DNA of 40,111 nucleotides from a bacterium (GTDB taxonomy: Bacteria > Patescibacteriota > Microgenomatia > Levybacterales > UBA12049), in the NCBI GenBank assembly GCA_021824155.1, contig JAKALN010000003.1:1-40111 (forward strand). The letters run 5' to 3'. Positions 2,117 to 20,060 of the stretch are shown here, piece after piece. The notes beneath the pieces are model-generated. The model saw nothing but the letters and a program-made list of their open reading frames with translations, searched no databases and was not told the DNA's origin. Position numbers and translations under genes: made by a program. The stretch's first letter is position 1; every line of letters begins with the position of its first letter.

Positions 2117-2122
2117 CATAAT

Positions 2123-3530: not shown

Positions 3531-3642
<112 letters not shown>

Positions 3643-4325: not shown

Positions 4326-4326
4326 C

Positions 4327-4352: not shown

Positions 4353-4378
4353 AGTCCTGAACTCATCGTAGTTTAGGG

Positions 4379-4465: not shown

Positions 4466-4472
4466 TAGATAC

Positions 4473-4904: not shown

Positions 4905-4907
4905 AAG

Positions 4908-4994
4908 CGGAGAGGGTGAGATTCGAACTCACGGTTACCTTACGGCAACAGCGGTTTTCGAAACCGCCGCACTAGTCCGCTATGCGACCTCTCC
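4908..4994 (-). tRNA. tRNA-Ser (anticodon CGA)
   Basis: Minus-strand read: GGAGAGG TC GCATAGCGGACTAGTGC G GCGGT TTCGAAA ACCGC, then a long variable arm, T-arm GTGAGTTCGAATCTCAC, CCTCTCC G. Acceptor and D arm are identical to tRNA-Ser(UGA). No encoded CCA. Confidence 0.88.
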
Positions 4995-5038
4995 GAACGT
5001 ATTAAGGAGATTAGTCCCAGGCTTGGGGCGACCTCTCC
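4995..5038 (-). repeat. 44-nt conserved 5' leader of tRNA-Ser(CGA), copy B
   Basis: gaacgtattaaggagattagtcccaggcttggggcgacctctcc. 42/44 identical to 3643..3686. Confidence 0.8.
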
Positions 5039-5050
5039 AAACTTTAATTG

Positions 5051-5123
5051 CGTGCCCGAGAGGAATCGAACCTCCAACCGCCTGGACCGCAACCAGGTGT
5101 TCTGTCCGTTGAACTACGGGCAC
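5051..5123 (-). tRNA. tRNA-Arg (anticodon GCG)
   Basis: Minus-strand read: GTGCCCG TA GTTC AACGGACA GAAC A CCTGG TTGCGGT CCAGG CGGTT GGAGG TTCGATT CCTCT CGGGCAC G. Full 73-nt cloverleaf. U33 and G37 flank the anticodon GCG. Confidence 0.85.
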
Positions 5124-5249: not shown

Positions 5250-6959
5250 ATGAAAATCGCTGTCCGTTTTCTTTTGATTGGATTACTAGCCTTTTTTAGC
5301 ATATTTTTCTTAGCTAAAACCTCCTTTGCCCAAACACAAAGCAATTACCCACCCGTAAACTCTTCTTATGCAGCTCCCAACACCAACCCTGATGTTCCCA
5401 ATAATCTTCACACATGGACACAAAATGTAATGATTGAAGTAATGTCTGCAATGAGCTGTCAGCTGGCAGGAATTGACCCGACTAATCCTTCTGCAAAATG
5501 CCTTGGCGTTGATAATAAAACAGGAAAAATAGGCTACGTACAAAACGGCGGAGGAGCCATAGGAATAATGGGAAATCTCATTGCCTTAACGCTTACGCCT
5601 CCTATTCATACAAGCGATTATATAGCTTATGTTTCAAGAAACTTTGGGATCGCCAAGCCTACATACGCTGCAAACCAAAGCGGATTTAATTCCCTCTCTC
5701 CAATTATGGGAACCTGGGTTGTATTTAGGAATATTGTCTATTTGTTGTTTGTGCTAATTTTCCTTGTAATAGGAATCGCAATCATGCTTAGGGTAAAAAT
5801 AGACCCCAGAACCGTTATGACAATTCAAAATCAAATTCCAAAAATAATAATTGGTCTTATTCTGGTTACTTTTTCTTTTGCTATTGCCGGTCTTTTGATT
5901 GATGTTATGTGGATTGTAATCTATCTTTTTATAAACGTACTATCTGCCGCAGACCCCAGTCTTGCAGCGGGAGGAGCAGGTAAAATTACCCAGGATCTTA
6001 ACAATACAACACTAAATTTTGCAAATAACCCGAATTTGTTCAGTGGAGGACTTTTGGGAGTTGCCGGCGGAGCAGCCGGCTCAATTGCAAGTATTATAGG
6101 CAGCATGTTTTCGGGAAGCGGCGCGGCAACACAAACTGCCGGCAATCCAATTATTGATTTAATTACTAACCCAATCGGAACAGCCTTGGGCGCAATAATT
6201 GGAGGACTTCTTACTATAGTAGGCGGAATTGCGGCTTTTTTCATAATTATGATTGCCCTTTTATGGGCGATGTTTAAGCTCTGGTTTTCTCTTTTAAATG
6301 CCTACATATTTATTCTTGTTGATGTTGTTTTTGCGCCTTTTTGGATAGTTTCCGGACTTTTGCCCGGAGGCCAATCAATGGGATTCAACGCCTGGTTAAG
6401 GGATATGCTTGGAAATCTATCTGCATTTCCTACTACAATCGCGATGTTTTTACTCGGAAAAATACTTATAGATTCTTTCGGAAATAATGGCAGCGCTCAG
6501 GGATTTTTACCTCCTCTTATAGGAAATCCTGCAGCGAGCGGAACAAATGTTTTCGGTTCGCTTATCGCCCTGGGAATAATATTTACCACTCCTCACGTTG
6601 TAAAAATTACCAAAGCCGCGTTTAAAGCTCCTAAGATTGACCTTGGGCCTATTGAAGAATCCGTAGGCGCCGGACAGGCAGTTGTCGGAGGATTTGTAGG
6701 CGGAGCAAGTAAGAGTGTTTTTAGAAGAGACCAATATGGCAGAGCAGAGGGACCTGGAGCACAATGGCTTGATACTAAAGTAAAAGTTAAAGCAGTAAGA
6801 ACACTTCTTGGTTGGAGAGATAAAAATTATAATCCATTTACTATCCAAGAAGATTTAACGGGCCCGGGAAAAAATCCAACCCCCACCCCGGTTACCAAAA
6901 AAGAAGTAAAAACTCCGCCGGCCCAACCGCCGGCCCCTGAAGGAAATAATAACGCTTAA
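5250..6959 (+). CDS. VirB6/TrbL-like polytopic T4SS membrane protein with signal peptide and Pro-rich C-terminal tail
   Basis: ORF-track frame 5052..6959, but its first 66 codons overlap tRNA-Arg. In-frame ATG 5250 gives MKIAVRFLLIGLLAFFSIFFLAKTSFAQ, a signal-peptide-like N-terminus. At least 6 long hydrophobic helices are separated by Gly-rich loops. C-terminus is GPGKNPTPTPVTKKEVKTPPAQPPAPEG. Family assignment rests on architecture and context, not on a search. Confidence 0.6.
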   Translation: MKIAVRFLLIGLLAFFSIFFLAKTSFAQTQSNYPPVNSSYAAPNTNPDVPNNLHTWTQNVMIEVMSAMSCQLAGIDPTNPSAKCLGVDNKTGKIGYVQNGGGAIGIMGNLIALTLTPPIHTSDYIAYVSRNFGIAKPTYAANQSGFNSLSPIMGTWVVFRNIVYLLFVLIFLVIGIAIMLRVKIDPRTVMTIQNQIPKIIIGLILVTFSFAIAGLLIDVMWIVIYLFINVLSAADPSLAAGGAGKITQDLNNTTLNFANNPNLFSGGLLGVAGGAAGSIASIIGSMFSGSGAATQTAGNPIIDLITNPIGTALGAIIGGLLTIVGGIAAFFIIMIALLWAMFKLWFSLLNAYIFILVDVVFAPFWIVSGLLPGGQSMGFNAWLRDMLGNLSAFPTTIAMFLLGKILIDSFGNNGSAQGFLPPLIGNPAASGTNVFGSLIALGIIFTTPHVVKITKAAFKAPKIDLGPIEESVGAGQAVVGGFVGGASKSVFRRDQYGRAEGPGAQWLDTKVKVKAVRTLLGWRDKNYNPFTIQEDLTGPGKNPTPTPVTKKEVKTPPAQPPAPEGNNNA

Positions 6960-9650
6960 TTAAACTTTGGTAAGCTTGCCGGTTGTTGATCTAAACCCCT
7001 TTAGGGCTCCTAAAAGACCTCCCGCTAAGGCTCCCCCCCCGCCCTCGGTTAAAAACATTCCAAATTCTGTTGTATGTGTAATTTTTCTAAGCTCGTTTAT
7101 TTCACTTTCTGTTAATATTCCTTTTTCCTTAATAAAGGCATAAATAGCCTGCATTTTAAGCATATTAAATCTTTCCTGGTCGCTGAATACATTTCTGTGG
7201 GATTCTATTTCTGCCTTAACCAGATATTCAAATACCCCCTTCCAAAGAAGTTGCCTCATCTCTGACGCCTGTATTTCGGCTACATCTACTTCTCCCACGC
7301 CGGACATATTCCAAACTTTCTGTTTTTCTTTTTTACCTGCAAGCCGTTTTGCTTTTCCCTCGTCAGTAAGCTCTGCCAGCTTCTTAGCTTCTACCTCCTC
7401 TGCCTGCCTTTTGAGTATTTTTACAATCTCTGGCCCAAATAACTCCATGAGAATCGGCATGTTTTTGGCAACAGGATCCTCTCTTTTTATTTTCCCGGTT
7501 TTATAATCCGAATTGTCTTCCTCCGTTATTTCTGTCTCCCAGGTTCTTACCTTTTTACTATAATCGGTACCTCCCCAAGTAGAAGCCCAATACCTTATTG
7601 CCTTATCTACTCCGTCGATAATCTTATTAGCTTTTTCATAATCAATAACGGGCCTTCCCATAACATCAAAGGTGAGCATATTCTGGAAATTAAACCCGTT
7701 ATGGTCAATTAAAAACTCGAGGAGAGTAAAGGAGTTCATTATGTGATTGGACGCAAAACCCCTCATGCTGTTTTCCGCAAAAGTTACTTTTGTAGGAAGC
7801 TCTCTTAAAGCTTGTTTTATGTTGATATCACTTCCTTCTCCCCCCTGAATAACTTCTATTATTGTTCTGCCTTTTTCGTCCCGTATTCCCTCAAACCAGT
7901 TGAGCCCCAATCTTTTTATTCCAAGCATATTAAAAATGTTTCCATATAAAGCATTCCTATGTTCTGCCATCTGCCTTAATCTGTATTCTTGCACATTTAA
8001 AGCTTTTGTCCAGGCGTCATGGCCAACCGCACCCGTATCATTTTTTGCGGCCAATCCGGTCCATTTAGTCATAGAAAACGCCCACGCTTCGGCGTACTTT
8101 GCCTCGTCGTAATCAAGGCCCATTTCCTGCATCACAGACTGGACCATCCTTTCCCTAACCTCCGAAATTATTGCCTCACTTTTTTGGGGACCCGGAGCGG
8201 TAAATACATTAATAAATTTAAGATATTCTCTTCTTACTTTTGGGTCGTTAATTTTAATTTTTCCTTCTGAGTCATACCAGGAGCTTCTGTCATAGGCCTC
8301 TCCTGTGTTTCCTTCTTTATTCGTCCCTTTCTTTTTTCCTTTAATATTTCCGTCGGCGTCTATTTCGTCATATTCTTGTGTAAATAATGCTATATCGTCT
8401 TTTGTAAAAAGCTTTTTGAGCATATCGTGGTCATAAATATAATAATAGGCCAAAAGAAGCCTTCTTGTTGCCTGCCCAACTCCAAAATTTTTTTCAAGCT
8501 TATCCTGTATTTCCCTTCCCTCTTGCAAGACCTCTCCTTGGGCCTGCCTCATTGAGGGCATACTCATAATCGTTTCCAGAAAATTGCTCCTTGTAAAAGT
8601 ATTCGGGGTATAAAGTTTATATATGGTTTTTGATAGTTCCGGTTCGTTAAATTGGTTTGCGACGTATTCAACGTGATTATTCCTTGAAGTATTAAATAGA
8701 AAAGCTTCCAACAAAAGCTCGTTTTTTAATGCTTCATAATCGTCGTTCTTGTGAAGGGTAGTTCTTTTAACCCTCAGGTCATCCTCCGGATTTGAAGTAG
8801 GCGGTTTAAGCAACGTCTCTTCTCTTTTCTCCAAGAAATAACTTCCTGTTAAAACCATATCCGCTAAGTTAACCTGGCTCCAGCGTGACTTTACAAATAT
8901 TCGCGAGAAAAAATCAACAGTTTCCGTAGGGCTGAATTCGTGGACTTCAATCATCCTTTTCCTTGCCCATGCGAGAAAATTCTCCTTATTAACTCTTCCT
9001 TCATAGTCAACAAGCTCTTTTTTACCTCCTGTTTTCCACTGTGCGCTCTCGGACTTCATAATAAGGACAGCCAAGTCTTCCAACGATTCGGGAATATCCG
9101 GGGCCACAGCTTCTGCGCTAACAAAATGCTCCCTTATTTCTTTTGAAAAATCCGGTAATATCCTTTTTATTTCAGATATATTCCCTTGTGATTTTAATTC
9201 CCTCAATCTTTCTATTACGGGCCTGTAACTATCTTCATATACTGCTTCTGCCAGTTGTTTGGTTTTATCGGCATAATAGAGAAAATTTTCTAATTCATCC
9301 GCTACGTTGGGATCGTCCAAGCTTTGGCCGTGCAGTATTACCCTAATCCCTTCTCCAAACTTTTTTTGAAATTCCTTCACGGGGTCTTCTATTTCCGGCG
9401 CTTCTACCTGACCCCTGCTTAACGCCGCTTCTCTTATTGATTCCCGGGAATTCCTAATTGCCTCCCTCCCTCTATTTATTTGTTCTTGCAAACTCAAGTT
9501 TTCTTGGGGCTCTTCTCTATTTTCTCCTGAGTTATCTGCGGGAGGAGTTTCTCCTCTCCCTGGTTCGGGCATAAAATTCCTTTCACCTTCCAGTCTAGGA
9601 AGATTGGATTTGTTTGTCAACTCAATATTTATCGGTTCTTGTTCTTTCAT
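6960..9650 (-). CDS. Large orphan protein (896 aa) with C-terminal Gly-zipper-like hydrophobic segment
   Basis: Long uninterrupted ORF. Acidic low-complexity N-terminus. No motif recognised. Ends ...FGMFLTEGGGGALAGGLLGALKGFRSTTGKLTKV. Its stop abuts the stop of the convergent VirB6-like gene (6959/6960). Confidence 0.85.
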   Translation of the reverse strand: MKEQEPINIELTNKSNLPRLEGERNFMPEPGRGETPPADNSGENREEPQENLSLQEQINRGREAIRNSRESIREAALSRGQVEAPEIEDPVKEFQKKFGEGIRVILHGQSLDDPNVADELENFLYYADKTKQLAEAVYEDSYRPVIERLRELKSQGNISEIKRILPDFSKEIREHFVSAEAVAPDIPESLEDLAVLIMKSESAQWKTGGKKELVDYEGRVNKENFLAWARKRMIEVHEFSPTETVDFFSRIFVKSRWSQVNLADMVLTGSYFLEKREETLLKPPTSNPEDDLRVKRTTLHKNDDYEALKNELLLEAFLFNTSRNNHVEYVANQFNEPELSKTIYKLYTPNTFTRSNFLETIMSMPSMRQAQGEVLQEGREIQDKLEKNFGVGQATRRLLLAYYYIYDHDMLKKLFTKDDIALFTQEYDEIDADGNIKGKKKGTNKEGNTGEAYDRSSWYDSEGKIKINDPKVRREYLKFINVFTAPGPQKSEAIISEVRERMVQSVMQEMGLDYDEAKYAEAWAFSMTKWTGLAAKNDTGAVGHDAWTKALNVQEYRLRQMAEHRNALYGNIFNMLGIKRLGLNWFEGIRDEKGRTIIEVIQGGEGSDINIKQALRELPTKVTFAENSMRGFASNHIMNSFTLLEFLIDHNGFNFQNMLTFDVMGRPVIDYEKANKIIDGVDKAIRYWASTWGGTDYSKKVRTWETEITEEDNSDYKTGKIKREDPVAKNMPILMELFGPEIVKILKRQAEEVEAKKLAELTDEGKAKRLAGKKEKQKVWNMSGVGEVDVAEIQASEMRQLLWKGVFEYLVKAEIESHRNVFSDQERFNMLKMQAIYAFIKEKGILTESEINELRKITHTTEFGMFLTEGGGGALAGGLLGALKGFRSTTGKLTKV

Positions 9651-9685
9651 ACTGCGGAAATTTTATGCCCATATAGATAAAAAAA

Positions 9686-9715
9686 CTTGATATTTAACTA
9701 ACAAAAAAATTACAA
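9686..9715 (+). promoter_or_regulatory. Sigma70-like promoter of the ATPase/wHTH regulator
   Basis: TTGATA (9686..9691), 18 nt, TACAAT (9710..9715), 10 nt before ATG 9726. Confidence 0.5.
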
Positions 9716-9725
9716 TACATTTACC

Positions 9726-11054
9726 ATGGAACCCACTCACTTTGAATCTATGTATCCGGAAAACACAAGAGCTCCGGAAATTGATAAACTTTTACAATTC
9801 GTAAAAGAAGGAAATTCCTGTCAGCTTATCGGGATTCCGGGAGCCGGACGCTCTAATGTTTTAGGGCTTTTGGCCTACAACAAAAACGTCCGGTTAAAAC
9901 ACCTGGGAGAAAACCAGAAATGGTTCCACTTTGTACTTTTAAATTTTTCAGAAATAAGAAATAAACCTCTTTTGGAAGCTACCAAATTCATATTTTTAGG
10001 ACTTTTAGATTCTTTACGGGAAAGGCAGATGAATAAAGAATATGAAACGGTAAATAAGATTTTTAAAGAAAGCGTAGTGATAAATGACGCGCTGGTTTTA
10101 TTCCAAGGGCTAAAAAAAACTGTTGATTTTTTGGCGATAGAAAATGAACTTACAATAGTTTTTTTATTTGACAGGTTTGAAGAATACGTTTCCTCTCTTA
10201 CTCCTGATTTTTTTGCAAATCTTAGAATTTTAAGGAACAGGGCAAAATACAGATTTTCTGTTGTATTTGCAGTGTCAAGGCCGGTAGAAGATGTTTTAGA
10301 ACCCGCTTTTTTTGCGGATTTTTATGAATTTATGGCCGGAAAAACTGTTTACATGTCAATCTATGACAAACCCGGGCTTGATTTTAGAATTTCATATCTT
10401 GAAAAAATAACAGGCAAAAAAATTAAAAGCGGAGTGCTTGAAAAGGTTATTTTTCTTTCGGGAGGCCACGGAAATTTAACGCGTCACTGTCTGGAAGCTG
10501 TCTTGGCAGAAAACCAAAAAGTAAAAGGAGACTTGAACGAATTTCTTTTAAAACAAAAGCCTGTCAGAAGCGCGCTTTTTGGAATTTGGAATGCGTTAAA
10601 CCCTTACGAGCAAAATAAGCTTTCTTTACTTAATTTTGAAGGTTCGGATATTTCTTATCTGGAAAACATCGGTTTAATAAAAAACGGTAAATTAACAATT
10701 CCTCTTTTAAAAGATTATATAAAAGAAAGCGCAAGAATACGCTCGGAAAACACAGGTCAAATAGTTTTTGATCAAAATACAAATCAGATTAAAAAAGGTG
10801 AGGTAGTTTTTTCCGATAAACTGACCTCTTCCGAATTCAAACTTTTAAAATTTCTTATAGCAACGGGCGGAAAAGTCGTTGACCGGGAAGAAATTATAAA
10901 TGCGGTTTGGGGAGAAATGCAGTCAACTGCAGGAGTAACAGACCAGGCCCTGGACCAGCTTATCTTTAGGCTCAGAAAAAAAATTGAGAATGATCCCAAC
11001 GTTCCAAAACATATTCATGCAATAAAAGGAAGGGGTTTTAGGTTTGAACCCTAG
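9726..11054 (+). CDS. P-loop (AAA/STAND-like) ATPase fused to a C-terminal OmpR/PhoB-type winged-helix DNA-binding domain
   Basis: Walker A-like GIPGAGRSNV. Walker B-like IVFLFDRFEE. C-terminal ~95 aa fit the trans_reg_C pattern: LTSSEFKLLKFLIATGGKVVDREEIINAVWG...DQLIFRLRKKIE...IHAIKGRGFRF. Confidence 0.75.
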   Translation: MEPTHFESMYPENTRAPEIDKLLQFVKEGNSCQLIGIPGAGRSNVLGLLAYNKNVRLKHLGENQKWFHFVLLNFSEIRNKPLLEATKFIFLGLLDSLRERQMNKEYETVNKIFKESVVINDALVLFQGLKKTVDFLAIENELTIVFLFDRFEEYVSSLTPDFFANLRILRNRAKYRFSVVFAVSRPVEDVLEPAFFADFYEFMAGKTVYMSIYDKPGLDFRISYLEKITGKKIKSGVLEKVIFLSGGHGNLTRHCLEAVLAENQKVKGDLNEFLLKQKPVRSALFGIWNALNPYEQNKLSLLNFEGSDISYLENIGLIKNGKLTIPLLKDYIKESARIRSENTGQIVFDQNTNQIKKGEVVFSDKLTSSEFKLLKFLIATGGKVVDREEIINAVWGEMQSTAGVTDQALDQLIFRLRKKIENDPNVPKHIHAIKGRGFRFEP

Positions 11055-11057
11055 ATA

Positions 11058-11086
11058 TTGCATTTAATTTATTCTTAGATTACGAT
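11058..11086 (+). promoter_or_regulatory. Sigma70-like promoter of the pilin/T4SS operon
   Basis: TTGCAT (11058..11063), 17 nt, TACGAT (11081..11086), 6 nt before ATG 11093. Confidence 0.5.
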
Positions 11087-11092
11087 TAGTTT

Positions 11093-12247
11093 ATGAGTAA
11101 AAAAATTCTAAGTATTTTTCTTGGAATAATTATTCTGTTTTCTTTTCCTTTTGTCTCTTCATTATCCGTGGCAAATGCAGATTTTCTCTGTTCGGTTTCT
11201 CCTTCAAGCATAAGTAACACCAAAAATCCTGTTACTTTTACTGTTGATAGCCACGGAAACCTTGCGGGCGGCAAATATTATGTTTCTGCCGGCTCGGCAA
11301 AAATAGGAGCAAACCGCGCTAGTATTGGAACCTTGTTTGACGCATCCGGCGGAAAAATAACCGTAACCGTTTCAAGAACTTATGATGTAGGAACTTGGCA
11401 GGTTGGAGTTTATCCTCAATATGATTCAGGGCATAATCTGTGTCAAAATGCCTCTTTTAGCGTATACGGTTCAAGTTCGGGCGGCAACACATGCGCCCTT
11501 AGCTTTACAAAACCAGATCCGTTTAACCCCAAACCATCGGACTACATAGCCGCTAAAATAACAAACCTTAGCGGCAATTTTGCTTCCGACGGACCGGATG
11601 CCCTATACCATACATACATCAGAGAAAATAATAACGATGGCGCTACTGTTTGGGACGGCTGTATAAAGAAAAGCAATTTTACAGATCCGAACGGATTTGG
11701 TTTTGGATATCTTTCAACGGGAAAATATTATATCCAGGTAAATGATAAGTGCGGAGGAGGATTCCTTTTTATAAACGCGGAAAATCAGGCATGTTATTCT
11801 TCTTTTTTTGTTGACCCAAGCGGAGGAGGAATAGGGCAAAGCGGAAGTCCGGATAACCCCGCTCCAAACACTCCGTGCCTTAACCACGACAAAAATGGCG
11901 CTTGCCTTTCGGTTGCCACAGGCCTTGGCGTTGACATAGGAACAAACCCTGCTAGTATAACCAGCTCGCTTTTTGGAATAATTCTGGGTATTTCAGGAGC
12001 AATTGCCCTGATCTTAATTATGATATCCGGATATCGAATCCTTGTCTCCCAAGGAAACCCGGAGGCTTTAAAAGGGGCAAGAGAACAGCTTACAGCTGCG
12101 ATTGTCGGGCTTTTGTTTATACTCTTGTCCATTGTGGTATTACAAATAATTGGAATAAATATTCTGCACCTGCCGGGATTTAGCGGCGGAGGAGGAGGTT
12201 CTGGCACATTTTTCCCCAACGGCAAAAACGGGATTGGAGTGCAATAA
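11093..12247 (+). CDS. Secreted Cys-rich two-module protein fused to a C-terminal VirB2/TrbC-like T4SS pilin domain
   Basis: Signal peptide MSKKILSIFLGIIILFSFPFVSSLSVANA. Two similar modules each carry GKYY[VI] and bracketing Cys. The C-terminal ~100 aa (SLFGIILGISGAIALILIMISGYRILVSQGNPEALKGAREQLTAAIVGLLFILLSIVVL) align with the three downstream small pilins. Confidence 0.7.
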   Translation: MSKKILSIFLGIIILFSFPFVSSLSVANADFLCSVSPSSISNTKNPVTFTVDSHGNLAGGKYYVSAGSAKIGANRASIGTLFDASGGKITVTVSRTYDVGTWQVGVYPQYDSGHNLCQNASFSVYGSSSGGNTCALSFTKPDPFNPKPSDYIAAKITNLSGNFASDGPDALYHTYIRENNNDGATVWDGCIKKSNFTDPNGFGFGYLSTGKYYIQVNDKCGGGFLFINAENQACYSSFFVDPSGGGIGQSGSPDNPAPNTPCLNHDKNGACLSVATGLGVDIGTNPASITSSLFGIILGISGAIALILIMISGYRILVSQGNPEALKGAREQLTAAIVGLLFILLSIVVLQIIGINILHLPGFSGGGGGSGTFFPNGKNGIGVQ

Positions 12248-12251
12248 AATT

Positions 12252-12593
12252 ATGAAGGAATTAGCATTAAGTCTTCCCGGCGGATATTCCATTTCCCCTC
12301 CGGGCGGTATCCCGCAAAACGGGATGACAAGCGGAGAGAATCTGCTTCAGGCAGCGCTTACTATTACCTTTACCATAGCCATTGCTCTGTTTATTGCTTT
12401 TATAGTTTACTCCGGAATACAGTGGGCAATATCCGGAGGAGACAAACAAAAGCTTCAGCAGGCACGAAGCAGAATCACCTTTTCCATAATCGGGCTTATT
12501 GTGGTATTGGCAGCTTTTTTTATAGTGCGTATTGTCTTTACCGTCTTGGGCGGTTCGGGAACTCCTGGGCTTTTCTTCCCCAACACCCCTTGA
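12252..12593 (+). CDS. VirB2/TrbC-like T4SS pilin paralog
   Basis: Two-TM hairpin with the shared loop motif: ...FIAFIVYSGIQWAISGGDKQKLQQARSRITFSIIGLIVVLAAFFIV. ATG 12252 is preferred over the TTG 12234 of the ORF track. Confidence 0.7.
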   Translation: MKELALSLPGGYSISPPGGIPQNGMTSGENLLQAALTITFTIAIALFIAFIVYSGIQWAISGGDKQKLQQARSRITFSIIGLIVVLAAFFIVRIVFTVLGGSGTPGLFFPNTP

Positions 12594-12632
12594 CAAATCA
12601 ATAAAAACACTATATTCTCAGAATAGACAGCT

Positions 12633-13046
12633 ATGAAAAGAAGTCTTGGAATTATAACAGGTTTTGGATTTTACTTAGCAAACTTAACTTCAGCATATGC
12701 GGTCGGCGGAATAGGCGAAACCGTGCCTCTTCAAACACCAACCGGCTCAATAGGCAACATTCCCCTGCAAAACATCCCCCAATTTATCATTACTCTTCTT
12801 TTTATAATAGGCGTTCTTGTTGCTGTTGCTTTTCTAATTTATGGCGGAATTAAATGGATACTTTCAGGCGGAGACAAAGCAGCCGTAGATGCCGCAAGAA
12901 AACATATTGTTGCCGCAATAATCGGTCTTGTTATAGTAGCCGGAGCATTCTTTATATTAAACGTTGTCTTTACTGTTCTTGGAGTAAGCAATCCTTTGTC
13001 CGGAGGCAAATTCTGCATTCCAAGCCTTACCAGCCCCACCTGCTAA
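12633..13046 (+). CDS. VirB2/TrbC-like T4SS pilin paralog with signal peptide
   Basis: MKRSLGIITGFGFYLANLTSAYA signal, then ...VAFLIYGGIKWILSGGDKAAVDAARKHIVAAIIGLVIVAGAFFIL. The C-terminal tail has 2 Cys. Confidence 0.75.
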   Translation: MKRSLGIITGFGFYLANLTSAYAVGGIGETVPLQTPTGSIGNIPLQNIPQFIITLLFIIGVLVAVAFLIYGGIKWILSGGDKAAVDAARKHIVAAIIGLVIVAGAFFILNVVFTVLGVSNPLSGGKFCIPSLTSPTC

Positions 13047-13086
13047 TCCTCTTGTCTTTTGTTTTCTTATTTGTTACGCTAATTTT

Positions 13087-13401
13087 ATGATTGATTGGGG
13101 TTCATGCGTACAGGGAGCGGATAGCGTTGCTACTCTTCAGTGCCTTCCCGTTGTATTTAGTAATATTATTTTTTGGATAGGCGGACTTGCCGCCATAACA
13201 ACAGTTTTTTTTGTAATATTTTCCGGAATAAAGTTTCTAAACTCAGGGGGCGACCCAAAACAGGTCGAGGGAGCAAGAAAAACCCTTACGTTTGCGATAA
13301 TAGGCTTTGTTATAATTTTGCTCTCTTTTACTATAATAAAAGCTATTGCAGCTTTTACAGGAACCCAATGTGTTACCCCTTTTCTAAAGTTTCAGTGTTG
13401 A
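13087..13401 (+). CDS. VirB2/TrbC-like T4SS pilin paralog
   Basis: ...VFFVIFSGIKFLNSGGDPKQVEGARKTLTFAIIGFVIILLSFTII. 4 Cys, 2 N-terminal and 2 C-terminal. Confidence 0.75.
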   Translation: MIDWGSCVQGADSVATLQCLPVVFSNIIFWIGGLAAITTVFFVIFSGIKFLNSGGDPKQVEGARKTLTFAIIGFVIILLSFTIIKAIAAFTGTQCVTPFLKFQC

Positions 13402-13489
13402 TTTTTCACGGATAGCCTCATTCTTAATATTTTTTGACATAGTTTGATAATCTTGAAACGTAATTTTTCACGTTATACACTCGTTTTAT

Positions 13490-14719
13490 ATGGAAAATCA
13501 CCCTATTCCCCAAGATATAACCGGTTTTCAGTTTAAACTTATAGGCGACATGACCGTAAAACAATTTGCATATCTTGCCGGCGGAATAGTTCTTGCCTGG
13601 GTTTTTTTCGCAAGCCCGCTTTTTGTAATCATAAAACTTCCTCTTGCCGCTTTGTCTGCTTTTTTGGGAGTAGGGCTTGCCTTTTTTCCTATTGAGGGAC
13701 GTCCGATGGATTTAATGTTCACAAACTTTGTGAAAGCTATTGTATCCCCAACTCAGTTTATTTATCAAAAAACAGGAGGGCATCTTTGGGTACAAACCCC
13801 TCAAATAAAAAATCCTAACGCAAAATTCGTCCCCCAGAAAGAAACAACCGCTTTGTCCGGAGAAGAGCTTAAAGAGTATCTGCGCACGCTGCCCAAGAGA
13901 CCAAAAAATCAACTGGATCAAAAAGAGATGGTGTTTTTTGAATCACTGGCCAACATGTATAACAAAGGGCAGGCACAGCAGCCGGCTCCAATTCCGGAAG
14001 CTGTAACGCCGCATGTCTTTGCCAACCTGGTGCCGGCCAAACAGCAAATAACCTCAGAACCGGTAAAAAAAGAGCCCGCTCAAGCACCCTCCGACAAAGA
14101 AGCCTCTCTGCAAAAAGAAGCTTTGGTCTTGGAGCAACAGTTGGAAGCGGCAAAAGCTTTGGAAGCGGCAAGAGCCGGCTCGCAGGAATACAACGAAGCA
14201 CACAGAAAAGTATTGGAGCTTGAAAGCATGCTTTCCGAAACTGCAAGTCAAAAACAAGAACTGGAAAAACAAATTGCCCTTTTGCAAAAACAGCTTTCAA
14301 CAGAACACAAACAAGTTTATACTCCTTCCATGGCAAAGGAGCCAATAAAAGAAACCAGAAATGTCAGAAGTATTCCACAGGGACTTGGAAAAAGTATAGG
14401 CCTTCCCATAGCTCCGGAGTTTCCAAACATAATAACCGGGATAGTTAAAGACCCGAGAGGAAACCCTTTACAAAATATCCTGGTAGAGGTTAAAGATGCA
14501 GACGGAAATCCCGTAAGGGCATTTAAAACTAACCCCCTTGGACAATTTGCTTCTGCAACTCCTATAGCAAACGGCACATACACAATAGAATTTGAAGACT
14601 CAAAAGGAGAGAACAAGTTCGATGTCATAGAATTCAGCGCAACAGGACAAATAATACTGCCCATAGAGATTATATCCGTTGACACAAGAGAAGAATTAAG
14701 GAGGTCTCTTTTTAATTAA
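13490..14719 (+). CDS. PrgI/VirB3-like membrane protein fused to a coiled coil and a carboxypeptidase-regulatory-like beta-sandwich domain
   Basis: The N-terminus MENHPIPQDITGFQFKLIGDMTVKQFAYLAGGIVLAWVFF fits the PrgI-family signature ([VI]P.DI ... K[IL].G..T..QF plus TM hairpin). Q/E/A-rich coiled coil in the middle. C-terminal ITGIVKDPRGNPLQNILVEVKDADGNPVRAFKTNPLGQFA...GTYTIEF resembles CarboxypepD_reg-type domains. Confidence 0.6.
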   Translation: MENHPIPQDITGFQFKLIGDMTVKQFAYLAGGIVLAWVFFASPLFVIIKLPLAALSAFLGVGLAFFPIEGRPMDLMFTNFVKAIVSPTQFIYQKTGGHLWVQTPQIKNPNAKFVPQKETTALSGEELKEYLRTLPKRPKNQLDQKEMVFFESLANMYNKGQAQQPAPIPEAVTPHVFANLVPAKQQITSEPVKKEPAQAPSDKEASLQKEALVLEQQLEAAKALEAARAGSQEYNEAHRKVLELESMLSETASQKQELEKQIALLQKQLSTEHKQVYTPSMAKEPIKETRNVRSIPQGLGKSIGLPIAPEFPNIITGIVKDPRGNPLQNILVEVKDADGNPVRAFKTNPLGQFASATPIANGTYTIEFEDSKGENKFDVIEFSATGQIILPIEIISVDTREELRRSLFN

Positions 14720-15388
14720 ATGGCTAAATCTGCCCGAAAAATCAACGCAACGACACAAAGATTTACCGAAATACAAGATATAGTCGACGATGTTGTAATC
14801 TTATCCGGAGGAAGCGCGTGCCTTGTAATCGAGGTAACGGCCACAAACTTTGCCCTCCTTTCCGCAGAAGAGCAGGATTCCAAAATCTATTCTTACGCGG
14901 CATTATTAAACTCGCTTTCTTTTCCTATTCAAATATTAATAAGGAGTAAAAAACTGGATATATCGTCTTATTTAAAGCTTTTGGATAATGAATCAAAAAA
15001 AACCCAAAACCAAATGCTTGCCGAGCAAATAAGGCTTTACAGAGACTTCGTACAGGAATTGGTAAAAGTTAATACTGTTTTGGATAAAAAATTCTATATT
15101 TCTATTCCCTTCTCTTTCCTTGAAAAAGGAGCTGGAGCTGCGGCAACTACTGTTAACAAAAAAAGCTTTGACGCTTCTTCTATTGCCCAAACGGCAAAGT
15201 CCGCTCTTCATTCAAAGGCCGAATCTCTTCACTCCCAGTTGTCAAGATTAAATTTAAGGGCAAGGACCCTTGAGAAAGAGGAGTTGGTTAAGCTTTTTTA
15301 TGAAATCTATAACGATAATATTATTGAAACAGGGCAAGCGGGAGACAACATTAACGCACCTGTAGTCAAAAGCAGGGAAAATGTATGA
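14720..15388 (+). CDS. Free-standing protein resembling the N-terminal domain of VirB4/TrsE-type ATPases
   Basis: IQDIVDDVVILSGGSACLVIEVTATNFALLSAEEQDSKIYSYAALLNSLSFPIQILIRSKKLD parallels the region upstream of the P-loop in VirB4-family proteins, including the next ORF. No Walker motifs. Start abuts the upstream stop (14719/14720). Its stop overlaps the VirB4 start (ATGA at 15385..15388). Confidence 0.5.
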   Translation: MAKSARKINATTQRFTEIQDIVDDVVILSGGSACLVIEVTATNFALLSAEEQDSKIYSYAALLNSLSFPIQILIRSKKLDISSYLKLLDNESKKTQNQMLAEQIRLYRDFVQELVKVNTVLDKKFYISIPFSFLEKGAGAAATTVNKKSFDASSIAQTAKSALHSKAESLHSQLSRLNLRARTLEKEELVKLFYEIYNDNIIETGQAGDNINAPVVKSRENV

Positions 15389-17334
15389 AATTATTTGATA
15401 AAAAAAATAAAAAAACACAAGCTCCGCAAGCCGTAAAACAAACGGGAACCCCCGCCGCAATAGGCTCTCTTGAAAAAGGAATGGTTTCCCTTACGGATGT
15501 AATAGCTCCTTCCTCTATAGAGGTTGATTTTCATTTTATAAGAATCGGGGAAAATTTTTATAAAACCTCTTTTGTTGTTGGATACCCTCGCTTTGTTTCT
15601 CCAAACTGGCTCCAGCCTTTAATTGATTTTGACCACTCCATGAATATTTCTATGTTTATTTATCCAACATCCTCCCCGGACGTACTGTCTGATTTAAGGA
15701 GAAAAATTGCAGAGATGGAAGCAACAATATCTTCTCAGGTTGAGGAGGGTCAGCTTGTTGATCCTAAAGTAAAGGCTTCTTTAGACGATGCTTTGGCTGT
15801 GCAGGAGGAGCTTGCAAAAGGCGTTGAAAGATTTTTTCAGTTTAGCCTTTACGTAACTTTGTCTGCGGAAAACGTCAAAGAGCTTGATGACGCATCAAAA
15901 AGACTGAACACAACGCTTGGCTCCATCCTTATGCTTTCTAAAACAGCTACTCTCCAAATGGAAGACGGATTTAAATCAAGCATACCGCTTGCCCAAGACA
16001 GGCTTTTTATTACAAGAAATATGGATACAACTTCGCTTGCTTCAACTTTTCCTTTTACATCCGCAACCCTTGCCCAAGATAAGGGGGTAATGTATGGAAT
16101 AAACGAACAAAACGGTTCTTTGATAATTTTTGACCGGTATTCTCTTGAAAACGCCAACGAGGTTGTTTTGGGAAAATCCGGGGCGGGAAAGTCATATCTT
16201 ATTAAGCTTGAGGCAATGAGGCAATTTATGTTTGGAACAGAAGTAATAATAATAGACCCTGAGGGGGAATATGAAAGCCTAACAAAGACCATGGGCGGGG
16301 AACACGTTTCATTTACCCCATCGGATCCTGTAAGGATAAATCCTTTTGATATGTCCGGCCTTTACGAAGAGGGAGAAAATGAGCTTGGGCTTAAAATCTT
16401 ATCCCTGCACGGACTCTTAAGGATTATTATGGGCGACCTGGATGCCTCACATGATGCAATTTTAGACAGGGCGCTTGTTGAAACGTACAGACAAAAAGGT
16501 ATAACGGCCGACCCGGCAACCCAAAAAAACCAGCCGCCTTTAATGGAAGATTTATATAAAGTGCTTCTTGGAATGGAAGACCCTTCCGCAAGAGAGCTTG
16601 CTCTAAGACTTGAGAAATTTATTAAAGGAAGTTTAAGCGGAATATTTAACCAACAATCAAACTTTGACATTAAAAATCCCCTTACGGTGTTTAATATTAA
16701 GGCCCTTGAGGAAGAATTAAGGCCTGTTGCGATGCATATAGTGTTAGACTTTGTTTGGACAAGGGTAAGAAAGACCCTAAAAAAAAGGCTTCTTATCCTT
16801 GACGAGGCGTGGTATGTAATGAAATACCCCGATTCCGCATCTTTTGTATATAGCGTAGCTAAAAGGTCAAGGAAGTACTATCTTGCCTTAACAACAGCAA
16901 CTCAAGACGTGCAGGATTTCCTTTCTACCGATTACGGAAAAGCAATCTTGTCCAATTCCTCAATTCAGATGCTTTTAAAGCAAAGCCCCTCCGAGGTTGA
17001 CCTGGTTTCGCAAATATTTTACCTTTCCCAGGGAGAAAAAGAACTTTTGCTTTCGGCAGACATCGGTGAGGGATTGTTTTTCGCAGGACAAAGTCACGTT
17101 GCAATAAAAGTAATTGCCGCTCCTTTTGAACACACCCTGATAACATCAAACCCCCAAGAAATCCTAAAAATGCAGGAAGACGCTGTAGTGCCCCAAACCC
17201 CCGACATAACACTGCCAGAGCCCCCTACAGTGACACAAGATACTGTAGCAACACAAAGCGCTCCCTCGCCAACCGAACCGGTTTCTCCACTGCATAATAA
17301 CCCCGGTCAAACAGAGATTCAGAAACCTACTTAG
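15385..17334 (+). CDS. virB4: VirB4/TraC/PrgJ-family T4SS ATPase
   Basis: Walker A VLGKSGAGKSYL. Walker B KRLLILDEAWYVM. Family-typical length and layout. Pro/Thr-rich C-terminal tail. Confidence 0.88.
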   Translation: MKLFDKKNKKTQAPQAVKQTGTPAAIGSLEKGMVSLTDVIAPSSIEVDFHFIRIGENFYKTSFVVGYPRFVSPNWLQPLIDFDHSMNISMFIYPTSSPDVLSDLRRKIAEMEATISSQVEEGQLVDPKVKASLDDALAVQEELAKGVERFFQFSLYVTLSAENVKELDDASKRLNTTLGSILMLSKTATLQMEDGFKSSIPLAQDRLFITRNMDTTSLASTFPFTSATLAQDKGVMYGINEQNGSLIIFDRYSLENANEVVLGKSGAGKSYLIKLEAMRQFMFGTEVIIIDPEGEYESLTKTMGGEHVSFTPSDPVRINPFDMSGLYEEGENELGLKILSLHGLLRIIMGDLDASHDAILDRALVETYRQKGITADPATQKNQPPLMEDLYKVLLGMEDPSARELALRLEKFIKGSLSGIFNQQSNFDIKNPLTVFNIKALEEELRPVAMHIVLDFVWTRVRKTLKKRLLILDEAWYVMKYPDSASFVYSVAKRSRKYYLALTTATQDVQDFLSTDYGKAILSNSSIQMLLKQSPSEVDLVSQIFYLSQGEKELLLSADIGEGLFFAGQSHVAIKVIAAPFEHTLITSNPQEILKMQEDAVVPQTPDITLPEPPTVTQDTVATQSAPSPTEPVSPLHNNPGQTEIQKPT

Positions 17335-17352
17335 TTTTGTTATTATTAGTTT

Positions 17353-18369
17353 ATGGACCAAAATCAAGACCAGGAAGAGCGCAAAAAAGAAGGGCCGCTT
17401 ACCCGCTCTATCAACACAGTTAATAGAGGCAGAGACTATTTAAGGTATGGTAAACAACTAAGAAATTTGGCTAGGGTCGGCCGGGCCGCGCAGGGAGCTG
17501 AAGCAGCGGGAGAAGGGATAATGGCTGCTGCGGGAGCAGGAGAAGGGGCTGCGGCATTAGCCGGCGGAGCGGGAGCCGCAGGCAGCGCAGGAGCCGCTGC
17601 GGGAGCAGGAGCAGCAGGTGGTGCGGTGGCCGCCGGAGGCGCTGCTGCTGCAGGAGGGGCAGCTACCGCGCCCGCATGGATCCCAGTTGCTGCTGTTTTG
17701 GGAGTGTGTTTGGTTGTAGTTATTATTGTTGTTGTTTTTTTCGGAGGCGCTCCGACGGCTAATGGAGGCGACCTAAACACACCCGCCCCGACAGAATCAG
17801 CAAGCCCTTCCCCGTCCGGCCAATTCCCAAACAACATCACCAACTGGGCAAAACAAATAAGCGATAAGATTGAACCCTTTTATCCGCCCTGTGGAAATAT
17901 TTTTATGAATAATGTTATGCTGCAAACCGTAACAAATGGTACATACACCGCGCACAAAAAACCAGGCTCATCTTGCGGAATAGCCGCAAGTACTTATTAC
18001 TGTTCGGATTTAATAATAGATTCTTATAATCTTTCGGGGGTTAAAGTGGGTTTTTGGGAATGGGTTCCTAATATGATTAGCGGCTGGTCATCTGTCCCGG
18101 GATTAAGCGTTAGAAAAACCAACAACGTTAACGGGCTACAACCCGGGGACGCTGTTTTTTGGCTTACTAACGCCAATAATTATGGTTCTGCGCAACACGT
18201 TGACATGATATACAATATTGACGTCGGCCAAAGCGGAAACGGCACTGTTACCACAATAGATGCAAACACTAACAATAAATTTAATACGTTTTATGTTAAG
18301 AATTGGGGTATAATTGGAATCTGGACAGACGGAGCAAATAGCCCGTGGTTTGGGCTGGCGCCAAGATGA
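17353..18369 (+). CDS. Membrane-anchored papain-fold (NlpC/P60- or CHAP-like) cell-wall hydrolase with a long N-terminal Ala/Gly low-complexity tract
   Basis: Ala/Gly tract at aa 42-107, TM helix WIPVAAVLGVCLVVVIIVVVFF, then a C-terminal domain with candidate Cys (YYCSDLII), GDAVFW, candidate His (AQHVDMIY) and TIDANTN. The position after VirB4 matches PrgK-type hydrolases. Confidence 0.6.
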   Translation: MDQNQDQEERKKEGPLTRSINTVNRGRDYLRYGKQLRNLARVGRAAQGAEAAGEGIMAAAGAGEGAAALAGGAGAAGSAGAAAGAGAAGGAVAAGGAAAAGGAATAPAWIPVAAVLGVCLVVVIIVVVFFGGAPTANGGDLNTPAPTESASPSPSGQFPNNITNWAKQISDKIEPFYPPCGNIFMNNVMLQTVTNGTYTAHKKPGSSCGIAASTYYCSDLIIDSYNLSGVKVGFWEWVPNMISGWSSVPGLSVRKTNNVNGLQPGDAVFWLTNANNYGSAQHVDMIYNIDVGQSGNGTVTTIDANTNNKFNTFYVKNWGIIGIWTDGANSPWFGLAPR

Positions 18370-18821
18370 ATAATGTTTTTTTAATTCTTGCTAAAAAATA
18401 TTTTGTGTTTATTGCTTTTGGGCTTTTCTTATTAGCTTTGTTTATTTTGGCTTTTTTACCAAAAAATAAACCACCTGCAACGCAAATAGCCCCTTCGCCA
18501 ACCGTCCAACCAATAATAAACCCAGGACAATCACAATCGGAAAAACAAGGACAAGCCGACTATCAATACAATAAGGCTATTAACGATTTTTATTCCTCAC
18601 ATCCATGGTACAATAAAATTCCTCCAAAAAATAATGATTATTTTATCGGGTACGATGCTTCAACAAGTAGTTTTTTTGTTGAGCTTTATCCAAAAACAAC
18701 ATCTGGTGTTTCTGTTAACGATCAGGTCGCACGGCTAAAAAACGAGGTTATCCAAACTCTTAATTTGATTGGGGTTGACACATCTTCTTATAAAATAGAT
18801 TGGTTGGTATACCCTCAATAA
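18366..18821 (+). CDS. Small bitopic membrane protein (positional analogue of PrgL/VirB8-like components)
   Basis: ATG 18366 overlaps the upstream stop (ATGA). N-terminal TM FVFIAFGLFLLALFILAF followed by a ~110-aa soluble domain. The functional call rests on gene order only. Confidence 0.6.
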   Translation: MNNVFLILAKKYFVFIAFGLFLLALFILAFLPKNKPPATQIAPSPTVQPIINPGQSQSEKQGQADYQYNKAINDFYSSHPWYNKIPPKNNDYFIGYDASTSSFFVELYPKTTSGVSVNDQVARLKNEVIQTLNLIGVDTSSYKIDWLVYPQ

Positions 18822-18825
18822 ACCA

Positions 18826-19935
18826 TTATCCCTGCACTCTGATTGGCATTATTAAATGAAGGAAGGAGTTGTCGCCCGATGCTTTAAACACTCCCGCACC
18901 CAAAGGACCTGACATTTCAAAAACAACGCTTTCTTCTTCCGTGTTTGCAAAAAAATCTAAAAGGTACCTCCCGTTAAACGCTATTTCATTTTCTTCTCCG
19001 GAGATTTTTGCCTCCACCTCAACCGTATCTTCACCAACGCTCGGACTGTTTGCCGAAACAACAACCTTATCTTTTTTTAAAGAAAACTTTACTATGTTTG
19101 CTGTTTCCCTGGCAAACACCGAACATATTTTTACAGCCCGTTGCATTTCGTCCCTATCAAATTCTGCTTTTGTGTCAAACCCTGAGGGAATTATTTTTTC
19201 ATAGTTTGGGTACTCTGCCTCTATCAACCTGCCAACCAGAACCGTCTCCCCCTGTGTAAAAATAGCCTGGTTGTTTTTACCGGAAACGTTTAGCACGATT
19301 TCCTCGTCTTGTTTTATGGAAATCAATTCCCTTATTGCCCTTGCCGACAAAAGAAGCTGCTCAGCACCTTCCCCTTTTTTTGTTTTTAACAAAACGTTGT
19401 TTTTTAAAGAAAGCCTGTATCCGTCTGTTGCTACAATCAAAAACCCTCCGCCTTCCTTCTTGATTAAAACCCCCGAAAGCGCCGGTCTTCCACTGTCTTG
19501 GCTTGCCGCAAAAACCACCCTGTTGAACTCCTTAACAAGTGTCTCTTTTTTTAGGGTTGCTATCTCTTCCCCTTTGTCCGTGTAAAGTTTTGGGAAATCC
19601 TCTGCCGGCATTGTCTGAAAAGTCATTCTTATTTTTTTGCCTTTTAATTCCAGGTTTTGTCCTTTTGTTTCAAGGGTTATTTTTTCTTCCGTTATGTTGT
19701 TTATCAGGTCAAAAAACGTTTTTGCCGGAACCGTTGTTTCCCCTTCTTCCTCAACGTTTGCGGGAATAGAAGAAGATATGCCTATCTCTAGATCTGTTGC
19801 GCTAATGGTAAGTTTTCCTTTTGATGCATTAAGAAGAAAATTGGAAAGAATCTCCAATTGACTGTTGCCGGAAACGGCATGGTTTAAGAAAGATATTTTT
19901 CCCCGCAAGTTTTCTGTTAAAAAAGAAACAATCAT
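18826..19935 (-). CDS. dnaN: DNA polymerase III beta sliding clamp
   Basis: 369 aa, typical three-domain clamp length and sequence character, immediately downstream of dnaA. Confidence 0.93.
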   Translation of the reverse strand: MIVSFLTENLRGKISFLNHAVSGNSQLEILSNFLLNASKGKLTISATDLEIGISSSIPANVEEEGETTVPAKTFFDLINNITEEKITLETKGQNLELKGKKIRMTFQTMPAEDFPKLYTDKGEEIATLKKETLVKEFNRVVFAASQDSGRPALSGVLIKKEGGGFLIVATDGYRLSLKNNVLLKTKKGEGAEQLLLSARAIRELISIKQDEEIVLNVSGKNNQAIFTQGETVLVGRLIEAEYPNYEKIIPSGFDTKAEFDRDEMQRAVKICSVFARETANIVKFSLKKDKVVVSANSPSVGEDTVEVEAKISGEENEIAFNGRYLLDFFANTEEESVVFEMSGPLGAGVFKASGDNSFLHLIMPIRVQG

Positions 19936-20007
19936 ATTAAATACTTTTGTTGTTGTTGTAGTTTATCTTGAAAAGTGGAAAAAAGCAAGGGAACATGGGC
20001 AAAAAAA

Positions 20008-20049
20008 TGTTGATAAAAAGGGCAAATCTTTGTTGATAAAAAGGGCAAA
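20008..20049 (-). promoter_or_regulatory. Two 19-bp direct repeats, each carrying a one-mismatch DnaA box (TTATCAACA)
   Basis: TGTTGATAAAAAGGGCAAA at 20008..20026 and 20031..20049, period 23 bp, in the dnaA-dnaN intergenic region. On the minus strand the box reads TTATCAACA versus the consensus TTATCCACA. Confidence 0.55.
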
Positions 20050-20060
20050 AAACAAGTCTT

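Follow-up and report, generated by a model that had tools for sequence, protein, structure and literature searches.

The stretch of DNA analysed here (the window) comprises 40,111 nucleotides of contig JAKALN010000003.1 and covers the region around the replication origin in a small genome of the Patescibacteria (candidate phyla radiation, CPR), from the Levybacteria. Next to dnaN and dnaA it carries a type IV secretion system (T4SS) locus, the core set of which consists of a VirB6-like channel protein, a PrgI/VirB3-like protein, a split VirB4 and four VirB2-like pilins, one of them with a large N-terminal domain, and a regulator is encoded alongside (Table 1). An initial annotation made from the letters alone had described this locus as a Prg-like scaffold with VirB2-like pilins, and the open reading frames (ORFs), sequence motifs and gene junctions that it reported were all found where it had placed them. 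Two conserved genes in the same range had not been listed, those for an 896-aa protein and for an ATPase-winged helix-turn-helix (wHTH) regulator. We consider it highly probable that the locus is a vertically inherited, origin-proximal T4SS of the Patescibacteria type, with a core derived from monoderm (mating pair formation FATA, MPF-FATA-like) conjugation machinery and with two accessory genes at its end.

Table 1. Features of the T4SS locus and its immediate surroundings (positions in the window)
Feature	Position	Strand	Characteristics
Three tRNA-Ser (TGA, GGA, CGA anticodons) and tRNA-Arg (GCG)	3553-5123	-	Immediately before the VirB6-like gene
VirB6-like polytopic membrane protein, 569 aa	5250..6959	+	Signal peptide and about five hydrophobic helices
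Conserved soluble protein, 896 aa	6960-9650	-	Convergent with the VirB6-like gene; stop codons abut
Candidate regulator, ATPase-wHTH	9726-11054	+	P-loop (GIPGAGRS) in N-terminal region; OmpR-type winged-helix C-terminus
Long pilin, 384 aa	11093..12247	+	PF18895 T4SS_pilin, 28.6 bits (gathering score 26.6), residues 288-352
VirB2-like pilin 2	12252..12593	+	PF18895, 36.9 bits; NF045849, E 1.4e-4
VirB2-like pilin 3	12633..13046	+	PF18895, 36.7 bits; NF045849, E 4.6e-4
VirB2-like pilin 4	13087..13401	+	PF18895, 35.7 bits; NF045849, E 1.6e-6
PrgI/VirB3-like membrane protein, 409 aa	13490..14719	+	PF12666, 32 bits (gathering score 27), residues 5-88
TrsD-like protein, 222 aa, detached VirB4 N-terminal part	14720..15388	+	NF045975, NF041427, PF26593
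VirB4 ATPase, 649 aa	15385..17334	+	Walker A GKSGAGKS, Walker B LLILDEAW; NF045971
Single-pass membrane hydrolase, putative papain fold	17353..18369	+	Transmembrane helix 112-130; CHAP/NlpC-P60-like ectodomain (C217, H282)
Small N-terminally anchored partner, 151 aa	18366..18821	+	One N-terminal transmembrane helix; alpha-beta-beta-alpha-beta ectodomain (predicted)
dnaN	18826-19935	-	Pfam match; chromosomal anchor of the T4SS locus
dnaA	20061-21410	-	Pfam match; chromosomal anchor (18826..21410 with dnaN), origin region

Core genes of the secretion locus

We scanned the VirB4 ATPase against one genome per species and obtained 275 relatives, almost all of them from Levybacteria, Microgenomates or "Patescibacteria group" metagenome-assembled genomes (MAGs). 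The comparisons between loci use the best 80, which are 65-89% identical to the VirB4 of the window. Profile searches recovered the four pilins (PF18895), the PrgI/VirB3-like protein (PF12666) and the VirB4 ATPase (NF045971) under the names that the initial annotation had given them. The ATPase reached 389 bits, against a cut-off of 325, with NF045971, the model for VirB4-like proteins of the CD1110 family (CTn2), and also matched the Pfam families P-loop_TraG (PF19044), DUF87 and AAA_10 as well as the C-terminal domain of Thermoanaerobacter VirB4 (PDB 4AG5, E 2e-47). The preceding gene, initially read as VirB4-N-like, encodes a protein that matched the TrsD model NF041427 over its full length (E 8e-5), carried a precomputed match to the TraC-like family PF26593 and aligned to positions 98-280 of NF045975, a full-length VirB4 model from the integrated conjugative elements (ICEs) of Mycoplasma (E 1e-10). 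The ATPase aligned to positions 275-893 of the same model. Because the two proteins cover successive parts of one VirB4 model in collinear fashion, VirB4 is split in two genes here. The TrsD-like gene is present in 79 of the 80 loci, with a median identity of 58%. PDB sequence and profile searches with its product were uninformative, and a profile-profile comparison (hhalign) of its family with the N-terminal region of VirB4, in which both alignments were shallow, returned nothing.

The PrgI/VirB3-like gene lies directly upstream of the TrsD-like gene in 75 of the 80 loci. Its product continues beyond the PrgI part with a coiled-coil-like region, followed by a CarboxypepD_reg Ig-like domain (PF13620, 33.3 bits, residues 315-369). 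With its membrane hairpin, long Gln/Glu/Ala-rich helical stretch and Ig-like domain the protein is four times the usual size, and this architecture is kept in 75 loci. Direct reading of the sequence showed that the TAA stop codon at 14717-14719 abuts the ATG at 14720; the next genes overlap by ATGA at 15385 and at 18366, and only 18 nt separate virB4 from the hydrolase gene. These tight or overlapping junctions fit the single operon from 13490 to 18821 that had been proposed initially.

All four pilins score above the PF18895 gathering threshold. The first is made up of a signal peptide, a Cys-containing N-terminal domain of about 260 residues and a C-terminal VirB2-like two-helix pilin domain, and is pilin-like only in the residues covered by the Pfam match; such a long pilin occurs once per array in 33 of 36 arrays. 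For pilin 2, the ATG at 12252 chosen by the gene caller is the more likely start, rather than 12234. Four pilin genes are present in 27 of the 36 scorable loci and five in another eight. The pilin domains of the window are 19-46% identical to one another, and the best match of each paralog is the pilin at the same array position in other loci. By this comparison the pilins look like old, distinct subunits and not like a fast-switching array.

The best NCBIfam match of all four pilins was NF045849, the "Mbov_0395 pilin-like conjugal transfer protein" of Mycoplasma ICEs, with E values of 1.6e-6 to 4.6e-4 that lie below the curated cut-off. Such matches suggest that two-helix pilin-like proteins are also present in monoderm ICE modules and, taken with the collinearity of the two VirB4 pieces with a Mycoplasma-ICE model, hint that the pilin-like proteins may be native to the monoderm module and need not be a loan from diderms. 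The initial statement that VirB2-type pilins are not known from monoderm systems of this kind is outdated in any case, as T4SS pilin arrays of Patescibacteria have been published.

The VirB6-like protein is polytopic, as annotated, and was assigned through its relatives and its predicted structure, the protein itself having no match in Pfam or NCBIfam. Among its homologues (about 50% identity) 4 of 45 matched PF04610, the TrbL/VirB6 family (best 1.3e-7), and three of the homologues listed bear a precomputed PF04610 match. In a Foldseek search of the PDB with an AlphaFold2 (AF2) model (pLDDT 69), VirB6 chains of the R388 system (TrwI) made up four of the top five hits, along with Legionella DotA; these structural scores are weak (E 0.02-0.35, the best being 0.022 with a probability of 0.99; TM 0.27-0.40). 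The gene is syntenic in at least 17 Levybacteria loci, and its start at 5250 agrees with the family consensus, whereas the gene caller had chosen 5166. We regard its product as likely to be VirB6.

Between the VirB6-like gene and the pilins lie the two genes that had gone unlisted. The regulator candidate, the C-terminus of which matches Trans_reg_C (PF00486, 70 bits, residues 365-440), adjoins the pilin array on its upstream side in 37 loci, in some of them inverted. A second full-length copy of this unusual fusion of a P-loop/AAA-like region with a winged helix lies at 30181-31485 (24% identity, E 1e-22). The gene for the 896-aa protein, which stands between the VirB6-like gene and the regulator, is syntenic in at least 15 loci with 22-48% identity, and its position suggests that the product may be a part of the T4SS. 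Pfam, NCBIfam and PDB searches with this protein gave no match. Its C-terminal tail is Gly-rich and hydrophobic.

Conservation beside dnaN and dnaA

In 64 Levybacteria loci the T4SS genes occupy an identical position beside dnaN-dnaA. The order that is kept runs from the VirB6-like gene (+) through the 896-aa gene (-), the regulator, four to five pilins, PrgI, the TrsD-like gene and VirB4 to a slot of variable content and then dnaN-dnaA. Across the Levybacteria the median identity of VirB4 is 74%, compared with 65% for DnaA, 62% for YidC and 57% for DnaN, and VirB4 divergence correlates with that of the neighbouring genes (Pearson 0.69-0.75; r 0.75 with DnaA). Because the position is fixed and VirB4 is more conserved than DnaA while diverging together with it, the T4SS is vertically inherited and not an ICE. 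The comparison of synteny across relatives that had been suggested for this locus thus bears out its description as a non-mobile, chromosomal system beside dnaN. As an observation in its own right, a VirB4 conserved above DnaA, DnaN and YidC points to an unusually strong constraint for a secretion ATPase.

Profile scans over about 54 kb (the 40-kb window, 4 kb on its left up to the contig end and about 10 kb on its right, in near-identical genomes) found no coupling protein, relaxase, VirB11 or integrase, which extends the same negative statement made earlier for 40 kb; no search was aimed at oriT. Within the 40-kb window there are likewise no domains of a VirB7/9/10-like envelope core. An ICE, or the remnant of one, with its DNA-processing genes elsewhere is an alternative that we weighed and rejected on synteny and co-divergence. 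It would accommodate a VirB4 that is closest to the models of conjugative CD1110/CTn2-type and Mycoplasma-ICE proteins, the tRNA genes just upstream (3553-5123), and the report of a recent survey that genes for type IV coupling proteins (T4CPs) are often distant from virB4 (Quinonero-Coronel et al., 2025). It fits poorly with the fixed position in 64 genomes, with VirB4 co-diverging with and conserved above DnaA, with a G+C content like that of the flanks and with the failure to find an integrase, relaxase or T4CP in the scanned region. According to the same survey, relaxases were found in only 103 Patescibacteria genomes (Quinonero-Coronel et al., 2025). We consider this alternative extremely improbable.

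The kind of locus described here, monoderm-type, with pilins, without a relaxase, near the origin of replication and possibly serving uptake or host contact, is already in the literature, and so is the comparison with the Helicobacter ComB system, so that the novelty implied by the initial annotation did not hold. Wang et al. (Cell, 2023) describe a T4SS of Southlakia that most resembles Gram-positive conjugative systems and includes a series of essential pilins; epibiotic growth requires the genes of the T4SS and of its pilins, a coupling protein and a relaxase are not recognisable, and a role other than DNA transfer is suggested. Quinonero-Coronel et al. (Microb Genom, 2025) report a distinct Patescibacteria clade of VirB4 related to MPF-FATA, in systems where TrsD is the commonest component and PrgI is also present. 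In their survey VirB2 genes form arrays of 2-11, which are abundant in Microgenomatia, relaxases are rare, and the loci lie close to dnaA/dnaN. A FEMS review of 2025 treats the patescibacterial systems as an exception among monoderm T4SSs and speculates about a pilus conduit.

The locus of the window has the features of this clade: a VirB4 that appears by sequence to be MPF-FATA-related, a TrsD-like protein, PrgI/VirB3, a pilin array, no relaxase or T4CP in the cluster, a place beside dnaA/dnaN and a patescibacterial host. With Southlakia epibionticum SEML1_0006-0019 and the clade in general it shares the MPF-FATA-related VirB4, the TrsD-like and PrgI/VirB3 proteins, a likely VirB6, divergent PF18895 pilins, the lack of a nearby relaxase or T4CP, the origin position adjacent to dnaA/dnaN and wall-degrading enzymes directly downstream of virB4. 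It differs in belonging to the class Microgenomatia (Levybacteria) and in having four pilins in conserved order compared with six in Southlakia. The survey reports that in Microgenomatia VirB6 is scarce and VirB3 is rarely near virB4 (Quinonero-Coronel et al., 2025), whereas here VirB3 adjoins virB4 and the VirB6 candidate is syntenic in Levybacteria. The Levybacteria locus, which retains the whole set of VirB6 candidate, VirB3, split VirB4, four ordered pilins and regulator in a fixed place at the origin and is more strongly constrained than DnaA, thus fills gaps in the Microgenomatia part of that survey.

Outside the Patescibacteria, the conjugation systems of pCF10 (PrgH, PrgI, PrgJ, PrgK, PrgL, PcfC, PcfG) and CTn2 (CD1110) share with this locus the broad type of VirB4, a PrgI-family VirB3, a VirB6-like protein and, following virB4, a wall hydrolase of the CHAP/NlpC type with a membrane anchor. 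In contrast to them, the locus has pilins and a split VirB4, its bitopic protein is not VirB8/PrgL-like, it is chromosomal and vertically inherited, and no coupling protein, relaxase or surface adhesin was found in the roughly 54 kb scanned, oriT not having been searched for. The initial annotation had seen in the gene order a mirror of prgI-prgJ-prgK-prgL; a prgK-like role for the enzyme is reasonable, but the equation of the bitopic protein with PrgL failed, as set out below. Mycoplasma ICEs (Mbov_0395 pilin-like protein, Mbov_0397 VirB4; NF045849, NF045975) provide the best NCBIfam match of the pilins and a collinear coverage of VirB4, with scores that remain below the NCBI curated cut-offs and do not amount to membership; there VirB4 is a single polypeptide and the module is part of a mobile element.

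The Helicobacter pylori ComB system also combines pilin, VirB3, VirB4 and VirB6 in a VirB-like set without T4CP or relaxase, and suggests a second alternative, in which the pilus and VirB4 would import host or environmental nucleic acid for an organism that is unable to make nucleotides. A nucleic-acid uptake machine of this sort would agree with the lack of a relaxase and T4CP nearby and with the presence of comM and ruvCAB in the same window. The ComB precedent has already been proposed for Saccharibacteria (2024 PNAS perspective), and a 2026 preprint reports uptake of host RNA by a cultivated relative, from which tubes, maybe T4SS pili, reach into the host envelope. However, ComB has a diderm core (ComB7/9/10, the counterparts of VirB7/9/10) that is absent here. 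Furthermore, the 2025 FEMS review states that loss of comEC in Southlakia ends competence and leaves viability unaffected; as competence is comEC-dependent and dispensable there and the T4SS is essential, the essential role is not ComEC-linked transformation. Monoderm T4SSs of this type are not known to import, and the sequence gives no direction of transport. On balance we find uptake as the function of the locus improbable.

Enzymes and partner proteins between virB4 and dnaN

The last two genes of the operon encode a membrane-anchored enzyme and a small anchored partner protein. The enzyme consists of a cytoplasmic Ala/Gly-rich N-terminus, a transmembrane (TM) helix, a GGDL motif with a Pro/Ser linker and a papain-like domain predicted to lie outside the cell. 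It had no direct Pfam match, and PDB searches were uninformative, the sole match being the NlpC/P60 protein 7CFL at 0.19. An exhaustive HMMER search with the hydrolase domain returned 201 representatives, compared with two from a word-indexed search. Across 55 remote homologues among these, 13 of which match CHAP, six NlpC/P60 and one Amidase_6, only Cys217 and His282 are invariant. The papain fold proposed initially is supported by this transitive homology, and the TM helix together with a CHAP/NlpC-P60-like domain bearing the invariant Cys and His is consistent with a membrane-anchored wall hydrolase of the PrgK/TraG/CwlT type.

The AF2 model of the partner ectodomain predicts a small alpha-beta-beta-alpha-beta fold with a pLDDT of 88-97 over residues 60-150. 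Neither a Foldseek search of the PDB nor profile searches gave a VirB8 or NTF2 match for this ectodomain, and a PDB sequence search was uninformative. We rejected the VirB8/PrgL-like identity of the partner on this fold and on its distribution, which tracks the type of hydrolase and not the core genes. The ring-building motif of EscJ has the same order of alpha-beta-beta-alpha-beta elements, but its match (E 0.06) was too weak to be used. A word-indexed homologue search for the partner alignment gave eight proteins. Most relatives (225-286 aa) carry a Big_5 Ig-like domain between the anchor and the conserved C-terminal domain; the partner of the window has no such domain, and neither do a few other short relatives (146-155 aa).

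The distance between virB4 and dnaN varies from 20 to 6557 bp across loci, and the slot holds zero to three two-gene cassettes. Homologues of the hydrolase and partner of the window were detectable by tblastn in only 7 and 6 of the 80 loci, respectively, and the pair is absent from the closest relative, L001. We had considered gene loss as the cause of this patchy occurrence, and replaced it by cassette exchange in view of the contents of the slot, the pairing of its genes and the sister genomes L002 and L003 described below. Ectodomain types were defined by clustering of C-terminal tails, as single-linkage clustering had merged most enzymes through their low-complexity linkers. The ectodomain type of the window occupies the slot in about 9 of 65 loci, with other enzyme domains elsewhere. 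The first protein after virB4 is almost always a single-pass TM protein whose cytoplasmic N-terminus has 40-720 residues and whose helix is followed by a Gly/Pro-rich linker and an outer domain that differs between loci. Among the outer domains we could recognise Amidase_3 with Glucosaminidase, Peptidase_M74, Peptidase_M23, SLT and SLT_3, besides a near-threshold C39-like peptidase and, in L001, an HExxH motif. Several enzyme and partner types of the slot found no name in Pfam or NCBIfam.

Downstream of each enzyme type comes a particular type of small protein with an N-terminal anchor. The enzyme type of the window (T7) is followed by the partner type of the window (T6) in 6 of 6 cases, and also in L044, where the enzyme domain is internal; this partner type was seen only downstream of an NlpC/P60-like enzyme. 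Other pairings were T8 with T9 (5/5), T4 with T11, T13 or T21 (9/9), T1 with T3 (10/14) and T2 with T5 (6/11), and some loci contain two or three enzyme-partner pairs in tandem. The nucleotide sequences of the sister genomes L002 and L003 are 88-93% identical across virB4 and ~83 codons at the start of the enzyme gene, a stretch that ends shortly after the helix and the GGDL motif, and identity returns from dnaN on. The sequence in between is unrelated: 1347 bp encoding an NlpC/P60-like domain and a partner gene in one, 637 bp encoding an HExxH-type domain in the other. Between the two genomes the ectodomain has been replaced, and its partner with it. With a constant N-terminal module, an exchangeable C-terminal enzyme domain, a breakpoint at the module boundary and a co-varying downstream gene, the slot has the make-up of a polymorphic cassette system, and the hydrolase and partner of the window are one of many swappable accessory cassettes and not core machinery. 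Neither a full-text literature search nor the accessible parts of the papers on patescibacterial T4SSs yielded a description of such a slot, and the swappable enzyme-plus-partner cassette is the one detail of the locus that is possibly new.

The same observations raise a third alternative, namely an effector-delivery or host-attack system in which the cassettes would encode polymorphic cell-wall toxins with cognate immunity proteins, directed at the contact site against hosts or competitors, and may help to set host range. The constant N-terminal module, the exchangeable enzyme domain, the small co-varying gene downstream, the presence of up to three cassettes per locus and the breakpoints at module boundaries would all be expected of such a system. 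A precedent is given by the wall-hydrolase effectors with adjacent immunity genes of the Xanthomonas and Stenotrophomonas T4SSs (X-Tfe/X-Tfi), where wall-degrading enzymes linked to a T4SS likewise have a small cognate envelope protein encoded next to them. However, the effectors in those systems are soluble proteins with a C-terminal secretion domain and depend on VirD4, whereas the enzymes of the slot have an N-terminal anchor in the producer's membrane, are not obviously translocated and lack a T4CP nearby. Some cassettes are also without a partner. Gram-positive conjugation systems bear anchored wall hydrolases (PrgK, TraG, CwlT) purely for the remodelling of their own wall, which counts against an effector role as well. 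We regard effector delivery as possible, while leaning clearly against it.

Rather doubtful, in our estimate, is a further proposal that the virB4-dnaN slot of Levybacteria is a recombination hotspot for polymorphic cassettes, each with an anchored, T4SS-associated wall enzyme of exchangeable ectodomain and a small cognate inhibitor or immunity protein. Such cassettes would make a passage for the pilus through the host wall and so help to determine the hosts that each lineage can exploit. The cassettes are testable candidates for the means by which these cells open a wall where they touch another cell, and possibly for the basis of host specificity.

Proposed role and genomic setting

We thus return to a vertically inherited T4SS with a core of monoderm origin as the reading that best accounts for the locus. 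By analogy with characterised systems, VirB4, its TrsD-like piece and the VirB3-like protein would energise assembly at a VirB6 membrane platform, and the four pilins would form a surface filament or tube, with the extra domain of the long pilin perhaps at the tip or the base. Such a pilus or tube could support an obligately host-attached way of life by touching or penetrating the host envelope and by moving material; conjugation is argued against because DNA-processing genes are absent nearby and the chromosomal position is fixed. The anchored CHAP/NlpC-P60-type amidase or peptidase would most likely open peptidoglycan locally at the machine, in the cell's own wall or in that of the host, and the small partner would most likely restrain or guide it. 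Much of bacterial diversity belongs to the Patescibacteria, which live on the surface of other microbes, and in the one species tested the T4SS is essential.

Several points weigh against this picture. A VirB8-like component was not found, the evidence for VirB6 is indirect, coming from family members and weak structural matches, and VirD4-like proteins have been reported from many Patescibacteria at a distance from virB4 (Quinonero-Coronel et al., 2025). Several enzymes of the slot have no recognisable domain, so that not every one of them can be called a wall hydrolase with confidence, a partner gene is missing after about half of the enzymes of the HExxH type, and the partner as an inhibitor or immunity protein is purely our inference. 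In addition, the Levybacteria have no cultured member.

The remainder of the window is consistent with its place at the origin, the minimum of the cumulative GC skew lying at ~19-21 kb. Beyond dnaN and dnaA follow rnpA, yidD, yidC and jag, and farther to the right envelope-polysaccharide genes and genes for a DUF4012 protein, Nth (nth), a class I tRNA synthetase and L25, besides the ruvCAB and comM mentioned above. Many of the closest loci (L002, L003, L005-L007 and others) belong to records titled "uncultured Gammaproteobacteria bacterium", yet they show complete Levybacteria-type synteny with a VirB4 that is 70-87% identical, and are likely mislabelled MAGs. To the left of the VirB6-like gene, the tRNA genes are interspersed with an ORF for a 182-aa membrane protein and a NUDIX gene. 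ORF 5052 of the mechanically made list overlaps tRNA-Arg, and its real start must therefore lie later. The window begins within a 960-aa gene without known domains (1-2071, minus strand), and the next ORF, at 1988-3499 (458-503 aa), is likewise without annotation. In the stretch 1-2071 the G+C content is higher (0.465), and both the GC skew and the AT skew are strongly negative.

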